A stretch of 64,000 nucleotides of DNA, taken from an uncultured Clostridia bacterium. GTDB taxonomy: Bacteria; Bacillota; Clostridia; TANB77; CAG-508. The position numbers were made by a program, and so were the translations under genes. Below are positions 9,791-21,608 of the stretch, in pieces. Numbering within the stretch: the first letter of the stretch is position 1; each line of letters starts with the position of its first letter. The stretch spans positions 15,495 to 79,494 of the forward strand of contig CANQXY010000001.1 in NCBI GenBank assembly GCA_947627935.1, written 5' to 3'. The notes below the pieces were generated by a model. The model did not search any database and was not told where the DNA came from. It saw nothing but the letters and a program-made list of their open reading frames with translations.

Positions 9791-11113
9791 ATGCCAAAAA
9801 GTGATATACCTAAAAATGTAAAATGTTCTTTTTGTGGAAAGTCACAAGAAAATGTTAAAAGAATTGTTGCTGGACCAGGTGTATATATTTGTGATGAATG
9901 TATTGAACTATGTAATAGCATTATAGAAAATGAAATATATGAAGAAGAAAATGAAAGTTATACACTAAATGGACTAGATAAAATTCCTAGTCCAAAAGAA
10001 ATAAAAGCAACTTTAGATGAATATGTAATAGGACAAGAAAATGCTAAAAAGACTTTATCAGTTGCGGTATATAATCATTATAAAAGAGTGGCACATGAAG
10101 AAGAATCAGATAAAGATGATGTAGAAATACAAAAAAGTAACATATTACTTTTAGGACCTACAGGATGTGGTAAAACTCTTCTTGCAAGTACTTTAGCTAG
10201 AATATTAAATGTACCATTTGCAATTGCTGATGCAACAACATTAACAGAAGCAGGATACGTTGGTGAAGATGTTGAAAATATTTTATTAAAACTTATTCAA
10301 GCAGCTGATGGTGATATACAAAAAGCACAAAAAGGTATAATATATATAGATGAAATAGATAAAATAACAAGAAAATCAGAAAATCCATCAATAACTAGAG
10401 ATGTAAGTGGAGAAGGTGTTCAACAAGCATTACTTAAAATTGTAGAAGGAACAATAGCTTCAGTACCACCACAAGGAGGTAGAAAACATCCACATCAAGA
10501 ATTATTACAGATAAATACAGAAAATATATTATTTATTTGTGGAGGAGCATTTGAAGGATTAGAAGATATTATAAAAGAAAGAACAGGAAAAAAATCAATA
10601 GGATTTGGAACTCAAATAGAAAGTTTAAAAGAAGTTGGAAGATATGAAGTATTTGAACAACTATTACCACAAGATTTATTAAAATTTGGTTTAATTCCTG
10701 AATTTATAGGAAGATTACCAATTATTGCAACATTAAAAGAATTAGATAAAGAAGCATTAAATAAAATATTGGTAGAGCCAAAAAATGCATTAGTAAAACA
10801 ATATAAAAAATTATTTGAAATTGATAATGTAGAACTTGAGTTTAAACAAGAAGCTATAAATGCTATAGTAGAAAAAGCAATTGAAAGGAAGACAGGAGCT
10901 AGGGGCCTACGTTCAATAATAGAAGATATTATGAGAGATATAATGTTTGAAATACCTTCAAATCCTAATATTGAGAAATGTATAATTACAGAAAAAACAG
11001 TTTTAGAAAATTCTGGACCAGAAGTAATCATAAATGAAAATAAAGAAAATAAAACAGCAATAAGGAAAGGTAAAAGACAAATTCCTGAAAAAAATAATAG
11101 AGAAACAGCTTAA
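9791..11113 (+). CDS. clpX: ATP-dependent Clp protease ATP-binding subunit ClpX
   Basis: It has an N-terminal C4 zinc finger (CSFCGK...CDEC), a Walker A (GPTGCGKT) and a GYVG pore loop. The start is set at MPKSD, 7 nt after aaaggag. Confidence 0.95.
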
Positions 11114-11161
11114 AACAAATGATTTTAAAATTTTAATATAAAAATATAGGAGGTAATAGAT

Positions 11162-11701
11162 ATGGAATTAAAAGGATCACAAACAGAAAAAAATTTAATG
11201 GAGGCATTTGCTGGAGAATCACAAGCAAGAAATAAATACACATATTATGCAAGCAAAGCAAAAAAAGATGGATATGAGCAAATAGCAGCAATATTTGAAG
11301 AAACAGCTTTAAATGAAAAAGAACATGCAAAAATATGGTTTAAATTATTACATGATGGTGCAGTTCCATCAACAATAGAAAATTTAAAAGATGCAGCTAG
11401 TGGAGAAAATTATGAATGGACAGATATGTATGATGGATTTGCTAAGACAGCAAAAGAAGAAGGATTTGATCATATAGCATATTTATTTGAAGAAGTGGGA
11501 AAAATAGAAAAAGAGCATGAAGAAAGATATAAAAAATTATTAGCAAATATTGAAGATGGATTAGTATTTAGCAAAGATGGAGATAAAATATGGAAATGTA
11601 GAAATTGTGGACATATTGTTATAGGAAAAGAAGCTCCAGAAGTTTGCCCAGTATGTAATCATCCACAAGCATATTTTGAAATAAAGGCAGAAAATTATTA
11701 A
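11162..11701 (+). CDS. rbr: Rubrerythrin (ferritin-like diiron domain plus C-terminal rubredoxin-like CxxC...CxxC)
   Basis: The sequence is [16 protein letters not shown]...EKEHAKIW...CRNCGH...CPVCNHP. Confidence 0.9.
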
Positions 11702-11703
11702 TA

Positions 11704-11733
11704 AAAGGCACATATATATGTGCTTTTTTATTA
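11704..11733 (+). terminator. Intrinsic terminator of rbr
   Basis: The hairpin aaaaggcacatatatatgtgcctttt is followed by a T-run. Confidence 0.5.
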
Positions 11734-11779
11734 TGTATGGTTAATATTTCTAGTGATTATATAATTAATAATAGTTTAT

Positions 11780-11930
11780 GGGGGTGTAATGGTTTCGACA
11801 TTATACTAGAAATATAAATAGCGAGTAGTGGATATTTACAAAGCTATATTTAATTTGAGTATGTTTGTTTATGCAAATTAATGGAAGGTATAGTGGACAG
11901 GAGTTCTATTCTCCTCACTTTCATCAATGA
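11780..11930 (+). pseudogene. ssrA': Internally deleted tmRNA (ssrA) remnant: about 57 nt of the 5' end joined to about 90 nt of the 3' end, with a degenerate acceptor end
   Basis: The 5' segment ggggtgtaatggtttcgacattatactagaaatataaatagcgagtagtgga is identical to 12908-12960. The 3' segment ...ggacaggagttctattctcctcactttcatcaa matches 13128-13259 with substitutions. The tag ORF and pseudoknot region are absent. The upstream promoter region is also partly duplicated or deleted. Confidence 0.55.
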
Positions 11931-12024
11931 GGTATCTGTTCAAACTTTTTTTAGTTGTTGAGGCTATTCCGATTATAGATAAATTGTACAAATGTTCAAA
12001 ATATATTGAAAAATAAATAAACAA

Positions 12025-12058
12025 TGGCACACATATAAAAATGTGTGCCATTGTTTTA
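12025..12058. terminator. Bidirectional hairpin terminator (aatggcacacatataaaaatgtgtgccatt) downstream of the reverse-strand Cys-cluster gene
   Basis: A perfect 13-bp stem is flanked by T and A runs. Confidence 0.45.
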
Positions 12059-12124
12059 TCCATTAGTAAGGATTATGCTCAGTAGAGCTCCTCTTTCTGA
12101 TAAGATAATGTAACTTACATCATC

Positions 12125-12721
12125 TTATAATGAACATGGAATTTCTTTGTCATTGAAGTATTCTGCCAAATCGTGTAACAGTCTTTGATGAGATTTCCAC
12201 TCATAACAGCATTTATCAATACTATAATTAGAATTACATCTCCTTTCTGGTACTCCAAATACAGAATTACATTCATTTGATGGAATTAAGAGTCTTCCAC
12301 CAGTTGGCCTGTGCTCGTAATCAAGTTTGCATCCTTTTTCTGTTAGTAAAATACAAGGACTTCTTTCATATCCGCAATCTACAATAGGAGCATTTTGATT
12401 TCGTGCTCTAAGAATATAAATACCAAAATCTTCATAAATCATTTCTCCATCAACAAAGTCAATAGAAATATATCCTTTTTCTAACTCCTTTTTCAAAAAA
12501 TCGAAAGAAATTTCTTCAAAGTCGTCAGGGCTAAAATGACAGCCGCAGCGTTTACAGCATTTGCCACCACATTCAGCACAAATTTCGGTATTAACATTTT
12601 TAGATACAGAATAGTCTTTGCTTATACTCCGATAAGGCAATGTAGGATACATTAATTCTTCAAACCATCTGTGAAATTCATCTTCATTCATACCAAAAGC
12701 ATTCATAGTGTAGTCCTCCAA
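12125..12721 (-). CDS. YkgJ-family cysteine-cluster protein (CxxCGxCC putative zinc/iron-chelating domain), nested between the ssrA remnant and intact ssrA
   Basis: The 198-aa ORF has the CAECGGKCCKRCGCH motif plus further Cys pairs, and nearby hairpin terminators. There is no obvious link to neighbouring functions. Confidence 0.5.
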   Translation of the reverse strand: MEDYTMNAFGMNEDEFHRWFEELMYPTLPYRSISKDYSVSKNVNTEICAECGGKCCKRCGCHFSPDDFEEISFDFLKKELEKGYISIDFVDGEMIYEDFGIYILRARNQNAPIVDCGYERSPCILLTEKGCKLDYEHRPTGGRLLIPSNECNSVFGVPERRCNSNYSIDKCCYEWKSHQRLLHDLAEYFNDKEIPCSL

Positions 12722-12864
12722 TTCATTGTTTATTTGCTATTCACATGTTTCGTATTTATTATACTAAATTTTACATAAAATTGCAAATTTAATTTGCTAT
12801 TAACAATATGTTTTCTTAAAGTCTTGTTCATGAACATTATTATTATCTATGGTTAATATTTCTA

Positions 12865-12893
12865 TTGATAAAAAATATTAGATGTAGTATAAT
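12865..12893 (+). promoter_or_regulatory. Sigma-A-type promoter of ssrA (TTGATA-17-TATAAT)
   Basis: The promoter is visible in the sequence, about 15 nt upstream of the mature tmRNA 5' end. Confidence 0.45.
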
Positions 12894-12907
12894 TAATAAT
12901 AGTTTAT

Positions 12908-13259
12908 GGGGGTGTAATGGTTTCGACATTATACTAGAAATATAAATAGCGAGTAGTGGATTCTCGTTGGCCACTTTAATAAACGGGAAAATAAATATAA
13001 ACGCTGATAAACAAGAATTAGCATTTGCTGCCTAAGAGCGGCAACGTCTTACTAGATGTCCCACACATTTAGTAAAGGCGATTATTTAGTGGGAAACAAA
13101 GCTACTTTTGCTTTAGGAGTAGTGGGTATTTATAAAGATATATTTAATTTGAGTATGTTTGTTTACGCAAATTAAATGAAAATAAATAACAAACTGCACT
13201 CGGAGAATTTTATATGGAAGGTATAGTGGACAGGAGTTCGATTCTCCTCACTTCCACCA
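12908..13259 (+). ncRNA. ssrA: tmRNA (transfer-messenger RNA, SsrA)
   Basis: The 5' GGGGGUG pairs with the 3' CACUUCC-A-CCA in a tRNA-Ala-like acceptor stem with G3:U70. A T-arm GGACAGGAGTTCGATTCTCC is present. An internal tag ORF ends ...GATAAACAAGAATTAGCATTTGCTGCCTAA (…DKQELAFAA*). The length is 352 nt. Confidence 0.9.
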
Positions 13260-13417
13260 ACAACGTATCTGTTCGAACTAATAGAACAGGATATATAAAT
13301 ACCACTCTGAAAAAGGGTGGTATTTTTTAGTTTTATTTTCAGTATGTATTACGTCATCCCCGAGTTTTGTATCATTGGTCAAAACTCATAGGGGGTTAGG
13401 ACTTTTGTCAGATTAAA
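13260..13417 (+). repeat. About 160-nt repeat (copy A) immediately 3' of ssrA: terminator hairpin plus a conserved inverted-repeat box GAGTTTTG-N10-CAAAACTC
   Basis: It is roughly 85% identical to 21445..21608, which follows tRNA-Thr. A partial copy is found at 14690..14768. Confidence 0.6.
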
Positions 13418-13595
13418 AAGCCCTTTATATAAAAAATAAATTTGTCTATTTTTTTACTTTAACATAAATTTTATTTCCTATTATAAAGAAAAAACAATAA
13501 TTTTCAAAGTATAAAACTCTTTAATTATCCTTAATAAATTGCAATAATTACATTTATATGTTAAAATAATAGCAATTAAAAAATAAGGAGAAATT

Positions 13596-14600
13596 ATGCA
13601 AGAAAAAAATATAGGAAAAATTACTACTGAAAGTTGGACATATCTTGATGGAGTACTTATTGAACATAAAGAAAAAGGAACACGTCAATCTGAATGGAAA
13701 TTAGCTGAACGTGAAACTGAAAATATTAGCATTGGTATGATAAATCCTGCTTATATAGAGATTAATGAGATTCAAGATAAGGATGATGAGTACAAAAAAA
13801 TTAAAAAATTCTTAAATAAATATGTAGAAAGATATGCAGAAAAAAATAGTATTCCAATTGAAGATTTAAGTATTGAATTTATAAATTATGGTAAAACTCA
13901 ACTTGTATATGTATTATCTGAAAGAAATGGTAAAAGAGTTACTTTACTAGTTAAGCAACCTGCTGTTCAATTAGGCAAAGTTCATCAAGAGGCTCAAAAT
14001 CTATGTGCTTTAAAAAAGAAGGATAAAAATGTTGTTGCACCAATAGATTATTTTCAACTTGGAGACCAAGAATTATATACAACTCGATATATTAATCAAG
14101 CTAGATGTATTGCTAGTTATGGCTCTTGGGGAATGTATGTTCCAGAACCATATTATAGATTTGAGCCATTTACACCAGAACAAGAAAAAATTGTTAATTC
14201 TTGTATGATTGCTAAACTTGTTAGCTTGTATGATTTTGAAAATCAAGAAGGAATAAGTTCTTGTAAATTAGGTGGTGGAGATTTCATGTTACCTAAAGGA
14301 TGGGAAAAAGAACCTCTAACTTTTGAAAATATTTTTAATAAATTGTATTTAACAGCTGCTAGAGAGAAAATAAAGTGTTCTTATGATGAATATATATCAA
14401 TTATAAGAGATGAATTTTCAAGAGCGACAATATCTGAAAATCAAAAAAATTTAATTATAAATTTAAGAGGTAGAGTTCCAATTAAAATTGAAAACATTAA
14501 CTCTGGAATTCAATTAGGACAAGCAATTATACATAGCAAGAAATATTGTCATTTAGAAAATAAACTTACAGGAAGAAAAGAAGATGATTTTGAACGTTAA
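13596..14600 (+). CDS. Hypothetical protein (334 aa), cargo of the ssrA-associated mini-element; weak protein-kinase-like features (Gly-rich loop NYGKTQLVY, VTLLVK)
   Basis: A long ORF with a good RBS (aaggag). It lies between repeat copy A and the right-end remnant. No confident family assignment can be made from the sequence alone. Confidence 0.6.
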   Translation: MQEKNIGKITTESWTYLDGVLIEHKEKGTRQSEWKLAERETENISIGMINPAYIEINEIQDKDDEYKKIKKFLNKYVERYAEKNSIPIEDLSIEFINYGKTQLVYVLSERNGKRVTLLVKQPAVQLGKVHQEAQNLCALKKKDKNVVAPIDYFQLGDQELYTTRYINQARCIASYGSWGMYVPEPYYRFEPFTPEQEKIVNSCMIAKLVSLYDFENQEGISSCKLGGGDFMLPKGWEKEPLTFENIFNKLYLTAAREKIKCSYDEYISIIRDEFSRATISENQKNLIINLRGRVPIKIENINSGIQLGQAIIHSKKYCHLENKLTGRKEDDFER

Positions 14601-14659
14601 AATTTATCTATAATTTTTGATATATTATAATAGGGATTTAGTGGTAAGATTGTATGATA

Positions 14660-14768
14660 AATTGTGAAGTTGTAAATATCTACGTCGTTGGCACCAATAA
14701 TTTATCTATTCTAACTATAGAACAGATAACTAGAAATATCATCCTGAAAAACTAATATTTTTAATTAT
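14660..14768 (+). repeat. Right-end remnant of the ssrA-associated element: the conserved motif AAGTTGTAAATATCTACGTCGTTGGCACCA followed by a degenerate copy of the first ~75 nt of the 160-nt repeat
   Basis: Hand alignment: 24 of 30 nt match 22101..22130. The following ATAATTTATCTATTCTAACTATAGAACAGATAACTAGAAATATCATCCTGAAAAAC aligns with 13263-13330 and 21448-21515. Confidence 0.45.
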
Positions 14769-14779
14769 TTGATATAAAT

Positions 14780-21368: not shown

Positions 21369-21444
21369 GCTATTATAGCTCAGTTGGTAGAGCAACAGAT
21401 TCGTAACCTGTAGGTCGGCGGTTCGATTCCGCCTAATAGCTCCA
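21369..21444 (+). tRNA. tRNA-Thr (anticodon CGT)
   Basis: Hand-folded cloverleaf: acceptor GCTATTA/TAATAGC, D-arm GCTC-AGTTGGTA-GAGC, anticodon loop TTCGTAA, T-arm GGCGG-TTCGATT-CCGCC, discriminator T and an encoded CCA. Confidence 0.9.
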
Positions 21445-21608
21445 ACAACGAATTCGTTTGAACTTTATAGAACAGATATATAAATATCATTCTGAAAAAG
21501 AATGGTATTTTTTTATTATTTTTATTTTCAGTATGAATTACATCGTCCTCGAGTTTTGAACATTGGTCAAAACTCATAGTGGGTTAGGACTTGTGACGAG
21601 ATCAAAGT
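21445..21608 (+). repeat. About 160-nt repeat (copy B) immediately 3' of tRNA-Thr, homologous to the sequence 3' of ssrA
   Basis: It is about 85% identical to 13260..13417, including the terminator hairpin (tcattctgaaaaagaatgg + T-run) and the GAGTTTTGAACATTGGTCAAAACTC box. Confidence 0.6.

Follow-up and report, generated by a model that had tools for sequence, protein, structure and literature searches.

In a 64,000-nt stretch of DNA from an uncultured Clostridia bacterium (the window; all coordinates are window positions), the gene for transfer-messenger RNA (tmRNA), ssrA, is accompanied by a second, shortened copy that lies upstream of the intact gene. This remnant is a copy, with internal deletions, of the ssrA unit, beginning upstream of the -35 box and reaching as far as the terminator T-tract, and we consider it most probably a non-functional, decaying ssrA duplicate, i.e., a pseudogene. 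An unrelated, oppositely transcribed gene for a Cys-rich protein lies between the two copies.

Two copies of the ssrA transcription unit

An earlier note on this DNA had described the locus as a partial tandem duplication of ssrA and proposed, among other checks, a tmRNA finder and a pairwise alignment; the observation holds, with small corrections of coordinates. ARAGORN called a single tmRNA in the window, at 12908-13259 on the plus strand, with the tag ADKQELAFAA*, and made no tmRNA call for the upstream copy at 11780-11926; the alignment gave significant identity in colinear blocks. The Rfam tmRNA model (RF00023), whose gathering score is 47, matched the intact ssrA with 170.9 bits and, as a second match, 147 nt at 11780-11926 (+) with 55.0 bits (E 7e-19). 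In this second match the ends of the model are matched and 269 of its 374 positions, all internal, are skipped.

The upstream remnant (copy 1) was compared with the intact ssrA (copy 2) by blastn, by nhmmer and base by base. Four homologous blocks were delimited: 11725-11752 = 12837-12864 (2 substitutions in 28 nt), 11760-11833 = 12888-12961 (none in 74 nt), 11834-11880 = 13128-13174 (3 in 47 nt) and 11881-11946 = 13214-13279 (7 in 66 nt). They are followed by a 10-nt tract, TTTTTTAGTT, at 11947-11956, which is probably the equivalent of 13321-13330. With E-values of 5e-37, 5e-22 and 7e-21, the copy-to-copy matches are far past chance. The blocks stand in the same order in both copies, which share the same (direct) orientation, and the window contains no match to the permuted tmRNA families (RF04321 and relatives). 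The intact unit, 12837-13330, measures 494 nt and the remnant, 11725-11956, 232 nt; the four gaps between the blocks add up to 16 + 166 + 39 + 41 = 262 nt, and 494 - 262 gives exactly 232. Since the gaps account for the exact difference in length, the remnant represents the whole ssrA transcription unit minus four deletions. A recombinase crossover at the centre of the trailer inverted repeat was also considered for the 3' break of the remnant at 11946, but was not kept as the principal reading, since the lengths come out exactly with a 41-nt deletion and TTTTTTAGTT after it.

The identity to the 5' end of ssrA, which the earlier note had extended to 11836, covers 54 nt (11780-11833 = 12908-12961) and continues upstream through the -10 box to 11760. 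The match to the 3' third of the gene, including the T-arm GGACAGGAGTTCTATTCTCC and the acceptor end CACTTTCATCAA, was found as claimed, with coordinates within 3 nt. The duplication is direct, as proposed, but the word tandem fits it loosely, since an unrelated transcription unit separates the copies.

Damage to the upstream copy

In the first deletion (net 16 nt), 23 nt comprising the -35 box and the spacer are replaced by the 7 nt GTGATTA, which directly abut TATAAT. A promoter scan found TTGATA-17-TATAAT in the intact copy, an 11/12 match, and called no sigma-70-like site for the remnant, in agreement with the proposal that the promoter region was duplicated and that copy 1 then lost its -35 element. 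The second deletion, of 166 nt, is the equivalent of 12962-13127 and takes the first pseudoknot (PK1), the resume codon, the tag open reading frame (ORF), PK2 and PK3. It is flanked by an imperfect 11-nt direct repeat internal to ssrA, GAGTAGTGGAT / GAGTAGTGGGT, and the junction of the 5' block with the PK4 block in the remnant falls inside the 11-nt repeat GAGTAGTGG(A/G)T. The earlier description of a missing tag ORF (13003-13035) and missing pseudoknots therefore applies to PK1-PK3, with the PK4 hairpin kept, and a duplication followed by internal deletion, also suggested there, agrees with lengths that add up and with a 166-nt deletion placed between 11-nt repeats. The third deletion, of 39 nt (13175-13213), has the 3-nt direct repeat ATG...ATG at its bounds and takes the P2 3' strand ACTGCACTCGGAGAA (the conserved ACUGCACUCGGAGAA strand), which is almost invariant in relatives. 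The fourth, of 41 nt (13280-13320), corresponds to the terminator hairpin. Left in the remnant are the acceptor stem, GGTTTCGAC, P2a, the PK4 hairpin and the T-arm; the acceptor 5' strand, GGTTTCGAC and the P2a 5' strand are carried by the block without substitutions.

To these deletions are added point mutations, which were examined in an alignment of the remnant with 24 distinct tmRNAs of related uncultured Clostridia. Six substitutions fall within the gene, three of them C->T, and five of the six are unique to copy 1. Three affect columns that are invariant in 24/24 relatives: 11872 C->T in the PK4 hairpin, 11921 C->T at acceptor position 71 (turning G2-C71 into G-U) and 11924 C->T in the CCA end (ACCA to AUCA). 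A fourth, 11907 G->T (U in the RNA), hits a T-loop position that is always a purine in the 24 relatives, and those at 11839 and 11844 fall in columns that are variable or unmatched among relatives. The in-gene substitutions show no bias to variable columns (Fisher p = 0.29), as neutral decay predicts. The minimum-free-energy fold of the remnant is no better than that of shuffled sequences (z = -0.84), and the tRNA-like domain (TLD) is not formed; the G+C content of the genome is 25%. Measured against what defines a functional tmRNA, the remnant passes the Rfam threshold through its two ends only and lacks the message domain, an intact TLD, the PK1-PK4/long P2 architecture and a promoter and terminator of its own. 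Its acceptor stem has kept G3-U70.

The substitutions are unevenly distributed between the blocks, with 0/74 in the 5' block against 10/113 in the others (Fisher p = 0.0067); an alternative count gives 0/74 against 12/141 (p = 0.009). The identical tract has its left end at the promoter deletion and its right end at the 166-nt deletion, and therefore fills one whole uninterrupted homology block. This distribution suggests either gene conversion after the deletions or a crossover at the time of the duplication. Selection on the 5' half may be an alternative, one that sits poorly with the damage in the domain's 3' half.

Validity of the assembly

A 2656-bp contig of an ENA assembly (L001) is 99.6% identical to window 10287-12942, with all ten differences left of 11471, and presents the same order of rubrerythrin gene, remnant, Cys-rich gene, distinct second promoter and start of the intact ssrA. 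This contig covers exactly the first 55 nt of the second exact-repeat copy and stops there, at an end point that would be expected of a de Bruijn assembler with k=55. An assembly artefact, i.e., a chimeric or mis-joined piece, or a strain mixture in a metagenome-assembled genome that placed a variant ssrA fragment here, is in our view very improbable. The source is evidently a metagenome-assembled contig, the 74-nt exact repeat between the copies is hard for short-read assemblers, and L001 may come from a sample that is not independent. Nevertheless, reads must exist that carry the substitutions particular to the remnant and its four clean deletions; a collapse, for its part, merges copies and would not yield a diverged, shortened one, and L001 reproduces the same join order. 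The assembly collapse that had been put forward as an alternative is unlikely in view of these substitutions and of the recurrence of the locus in L001.

Table 1. Features of the ssrA locus, in window coordinates
Feature	Position	Strand	Basis
ssrA upstream/promoter relic	11725..11759	+	11725-11752 matches 12837-12864
Zero-substitution block: -10 box (11760-11765), leader, first 54 nt of tmRNA	11760..11833	+	Base comparison
ssrA pseudogene proper (147 nt vs 352 nt in the intact gene), most probable assignment	11780..11926	+	Rfam RF00023, alignment to 24 relatives
Kept PK4 hairpin block, 3 substitutions	11834..11880	+	= 13128-13174
P2a 3' strand, T-arm, acceptor 3' strand	11881..11926	+	= 13214-13259
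3' trailer relic (20 nt, 4 substitutions) and terminator T-tract TTTTTTAGTT	11927..11956	+	
Cys-rich transcription unit: gene 12125-12706, terminator 12019-12056, promoter 12758-12787	12000..12796	-	
Intact ssrA upstream region, promoter (-35 12865-12870, -10 12888-12893), leader	12837..12907	+	Promoter scan
Intact tmRNA gene, tag ORF 13003-13035 (ADKQELAFAA*)	12908..13259	+	ARAGORN, Rfam
3' module: trailer with inverted repeat 13266-13292, terminator 13297-13325, hairpin and CTCATAGGGGGTTAGGACTT	13260..13420	+	
Degenerate third CACCA + trailer + terminator copy, downstream of orf334	14692..14770	+	74% over 82 nt

Genomic context

Upstream of the remnant lie tig, clpP, clpX and a rubrerythrin gene. 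In a sibling species (ClpX 91% aa identity), 86.7% DNA identity extends over window 4537-11703 and ends at the rubrerythrin stop codon; the remnant therefore begins 22 nt past the breakpoint of synteny. The sibling continues with Wzy_C, VanW, IS200-type transposase, MiaB-like and MutS genes, none of which is found in the window, and has no ssrA-like sequence after rubrerythrin. No integrase, recombinase or transposase domain was detected in the ORFs scanned between 4.9 and 27.4 kb. Exact-protein look-ups for the rubrerythrin and for orf334, the ORF downstream of ssrA, returned no match. In phage and plasmid collections only the conserved 3' TLD of ssrA was matched, and the segment therefore does not correspond to any known plasmid or phage.

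The gene between the copies had been described as a 198-aa member of the YkgJ family on the opposite strand. The ORF is present and has 198 aa when read from a TTG, but a protein of 193 aa, starting at the ATG after GGAGG (12125-12706, minus strand), is more likely, and the motif is C43-xx-C46-xxx-C50-C51, i.e., CxxCxxxCC and not CxxCxxCC. The protein belongs to a widespread, well-conserved family with 188 homologues, and an alignment of 27 contains 44 invariant columns, with CxxCxxxCCxxCxC and five further Cys among the family invariants; the AlphaFold model of the protein is a confident one, with a pLDDT (predicted local distance difference test) of 84. The protein itself has no match in Pfam (even at E<=1), NCBIfam, PDB sequences or PDB folds. 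PF03692 is matched by 3 of the 27 aligned homologues, with a best E-value of 1.6e-5, and a link to YkgJ, a distant relationship at best, is possible but unproven.

The DNA of the Cys-rich unit is 85-87% identical in L002 and L004, where homology runs from promoter to terminator only and the neighbours are wholly different, and all homologues of the gene lie in unrelated neighbourhoods without tmRNA. The same single-unit behaviour was observed for orf334 (13579-14618), whose homologues also have unrelated neighbourhoods without tmRNA; one of them adjoins TnpV and NikA-like genes. The Cys-rich gene and orf334 have 80-87% DNA identity to their copies in other genomes (L002, L004, L005, L053-L056), with little or no flank, and look like floating one-gene units. 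A conserved ssrA-linked operon was considered and is not supported, the neighbourhoods of both sets of homologues being unrelated.

A probable mobile-element module downstream of ssrA

The 165 nt behind the intact ssrA (13257-13420) have a second occurrence at 21442-21606, where they follow tRNA-Thr, with 82-85% identity (nhmmer E 2e-26). This module directly follows the CCA end of both ssrA and tRNA-Thr and consists of a conserved trailer with the inverted repeat CTGTTC-N9-GAACAG, a terminator, and a second hairpin with CTCATAGGGGGTTAGGACTT; no Rfam family matched it at E<=5. The partial copy at 14692-14770 is its third-best match in the window, with a score of 32 against a noise ceiling of 18; it was not reported by nhmmer, and no tRNA pseudogene was detected in front of it. 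This copy lies between orf334 and orf176, so that orf334 is bracketed by repeated end sequences, an arrangement like that of a gene-less cis-mobilizable relic.

The module was also found after ssrA in L048 (1622-1831) and L052 (283-358), after a tRNA in L004 (4536-4568) and after tRNA-Leu(TAG) in the viral contig L067 (about 2408-2468). The relatives L045 and L048, compared over L045 4247-4650 and L048 1817-2220 (minus strand), have polA upstream in common and ssrA genes that are 90% identical, and the two loci diverge ~10 nt past the 3' end of ssrA. From there on, L048 has the module and an unknown 498-aa ORF, and L045 continues with a terminator of its own and an ORF whose N-terminus is shared, as do L036 and L046. 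This is consistent with an insertion of the module in L048, with loss in L045 as the alternative.

In seven IMG/VR contigs (L061-L066 and L068), a gene for a 545-aa large serine recombinase stands between the halves of the module, the second of which lies just upstream of a Mob_Pre (MobV) relaxase gene. Such split modules are seen, for example, at L062 7172-9891 and L063 3332-4204, with the element next to a 3' fragment of tRNA-Leu(TAG). These contigs have the make-up of Tn4451-type integrative mobilizable elements (IMEs), with intact versions in L061-L068, and the second half of the module, with the hairpin motif, is probably an oriT-like site. A tblastn search with the L062 and L063 recombinase and relaxase gave no match in the window; the locus therefore holds scars and not a live element. 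We interpret 13260-13420 as the gene-less remains of an IME, that is, a relic rather than a member. In L002 (1220-1265), the terminator of the Cys-rich gene is immediately followed by a piece like the module terminator, with 39/47 positions identical to window 13287-13333 and paired changes in the stem, which hints that the Cys-rich gene travels with the same kind of element.

Origin of the remnant and alternative explanations

The interpretation that we favour is that copy 1 is a decaying duplicate, at a locus that is most likely a site of repeated foreign-DNA insertion. The duplication would have resulted from extra DNA recombining at the ssrA locus, where the synteny breakpoint and the mobile-element scars coincide with it. 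With two copies present, one would have been free to decay, by deletions between repeats and by point mutations, of which half are C->T, and would make no useful RNA; the 74-nt identical 5' block would derive from later gene conversion, or from the original crossover, between the copies. Since five of the six differences within the gene occur in copy 1 only and not in other lineages, decay is favoured over a foreign origin of the diverged blocks. The remnant ends in the first 20 nt of the module trailer and would therefore have been copied from an ssrA already followed by element DNA. Two scenarios of origin would fit these observations: an in-situ duplication in which the Cys-rich unit was inserted or retained, or a Campbell-type insertion, which we think improbable, of a circle with ssrA and the Cys-rich gene into the resident ssrA, copy 2 being the newcomer. 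A search with the 27-mer GGGGGTGTAATGGTTTCGACATTATAC returned 13 metagenome and 15 GTDB loci, each with a single tmRNA, 75-83% identity and no synteny; the species of the window is not among them, and the duplication event is therefore not polarised by these loci.

Several observations weigh against a decaying duplicate. The -10 box, the leader, P2a, the T-stem and 7/7 acceptor pairs (three of them G-U, including G3-U70) survive, and a weakly transcribed tRNA-like RNA may come from the remnant, judging from its sequence. In principle, RNase Z together with the CCA-adding enzyme might trim and restore an AUCA terminus. The perfect 5' block may reflect selection and not conversion. The locus is carried by only one strain-level relative, L001, to which the reservation about sample independence applies here as well. 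Finally, the scenario of origin is one that we infer: the searches turned up no genome that shows the ancestral arrangement, and the window is devoid of recombinase genes.

A variant of the decaying duplicate fixes the direction of events: the intact copy 2 and the Cys-rich gene would have arrived on mobile or foreign DNA, and the resident copy 1 would have decayed in place. Copy 1 is contiguous with the conserved tig-clpP-clpX-rubrerythrin segment, synteny with the sibling is lost everywhere to its right, and element-type DNA lies behind copy 2; moreover, the Cys-rich unit and orf334 are floating single transcription units in relatives, and a crossover in the 5' block would account for 0/74 substitutions beside ~9% divergence. 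Nevertheless, this replacement is unlikely. The sibling has neither ssrA nor an ssrA relic after rubrerythrin, so that copy 1 is not demonstrably at home; the five differences unique to copy 1 are not seen in other lineages and have the look of decay; and no recombinase, relaxase or att-type short repeats bound 11957-12836. A classical att-site duplication, in which the remnant would be an ssrA fragment left by the integrase-mediated insertion of an island, would suit a gene that is reportedly a hotspot of integration (Williams 2003, "Traffic at the tmRNA gene", J Bacteriol), as well as the element scars and, at 14692-14770, a third, degenerate repeat of 3' end and trailer. However, fragments of that kind are 3' parts lying downstream, at the island end distant from the intact gene, whereas the remnant has a promoter region and a 5' end, sits upstream of the intact gene and encloses only 1.1 kb that is free of integrase. 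We see an extremely slim chance for it, in line with the earlier note, which had argued against a simple integrase-mediated duplication of the 3' end; the kept promoter region and 5' end, the upstream position and the lack of an integrase domain between 4.9 and 27.4 kb all speak for that view.

It is also highly unlikely that the remnant is a functional mini-tmRNA, that is, an expressed, message-less TLD RNA that binds SmpB and modulates or inhibits trans-translation. The gene ends, P2a, the T-stem and the seven acceptor pairs are kept, the two big deletions take the message and pseudoknots only, and no change has touched the 5' block, the -10 box or the leader. Furthermore, mycobacteriophage DS6A has a TLD-only tmRNA, inhibition of tmRNA by a similar molecule is on record (PMC4131195), and intact 77-nt TLD-only genes occur in eight IMG/VR contigs. 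Against this function, the T-loop purine, acceptor C71 and a base of the CCA end, all invariant in the 24 relatives, are mutated; a usable -35 spacing and a terminator are both lacking; the fold is no better than that of shuffled sequences; and the remnant scores 55 bits, as compared with 68-71 bits for the shorter phage versions. The leftover PK4 hairpin and the ragged microhomology junctions point to decay and not to design. Hardly credible, in our view, is the more specific proposal of a chromosomal TLD-only "anti-tmRNA", a weakly expressed RNA of ~150 nt that would dock on SmpB or the ribosome and tune trans-translation; selection would then account for the perfect -10 box, leader and 5' half, and the remnant would be a bacterial counterpart of the phage TLD-only genes.

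Implications

The finding is real and biologically modest: most probably another tmRNA pseudogene. The remnant scores above the Rfam gathering threshold, and annotation pipelines may consequently report two tmRNA genes where there are one gene and one pseudogene. We interpret the locus as an example of element-driven reshuffling around ssrA, in which rearrangement and repeated element insertion in an uncultured gut Clostridia lineage have shuffled whole transcription units, including ssrA. An active TLD-only RNA made from the remnant would amount to a ribosome-rescue regulator encoded on the chromosome, but the evidence speaks against such activity.

Comparison with known systems

Decay into relics without genes and tandem accretion are documented for integrated elements, as described for cis-mobilizable elements (CIMEs; Pavlovic 2004, Bellanger 2011, reviewed in PMC5704250). 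The present locus resembles CIME accretion and the Tn4451-type IMEs (large serine recombinase and MobV relaxase) in that the non-coding ends of an element stand, without genes, after ssrA and tRNA-Thr, and in that single cargo genes lie between repeated end sequences. It differs in that accretion duplicates short att sites or gene 3' ends and not a whole RNA gene from promoter to terminator; the link between element accretion and the ssrA duplication itself is one that we infer. With the 3' ssrA fragments that flank islands, the remnant shares a direct ssrA repeat at an integration hotspot, and a degenerate 3' repeat of such a kind is present at 14692-14770; unlike those fragments, it has a promoter region and a 5' end, lies upstream and is without an integrase.

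Reduced forms of tmRNA have been reported in mycobacteriophage DS6A, which has a TLD-only tmRNA (PMC4131195), and in jakobid mitochondria (PMC3590771), and a TLD-like molecule inhibits tmRNA, perhaps by titration of SmpB (PMC4131195). A 20-mer search of viral contigs, which returned unrelated tmRNAs only, brought further TLD-only phage genes to light. In eight IMG/VR contigs (L010, L012, L014, L017, L018, L020, L021 and L023) we observed a conserved 77-nt TLD-only tmRNA-like gene (e.g., L010 4615-4691), which scores 68-71 bits with Rfam, is not called by ARAGORN and resembles the DS6A gene. The remnant is like the TLD-only forms of DS6A, the jakobid mitochondria and the IMG/VR contigs in keeping the acceptor stem and T-arm and in lacking the mRNA-like domain. 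Those forms are compact and intact, whereas the remnant has mutated invariant bases, a PK4 hairpin, and neither promoter spacing nor a terminator.

A further parallel is provided by the tmRNA Website survey (Hudson, Lau & Williams 2014), which recognised tmRNA pseudogenes and fragments in genomes, described the pseudogenes as "missing one gene end", and noted occasional second or third ssrA alleles (PMC4131195). Like the survey pseudogenes, the remnant is a defective second ssrA beside a good gene, detected by Infernal/Rfam and rejected by stricter criteria. Unlike them, it keeps both ends and the flanks, with the middle deleted. If it is the pseudogene that we take it to be, it adds to the types with one end missing and with a 3' fragment an unusual form, in which both ends are kept and the middle has been lost by repeat-mediated deletions.

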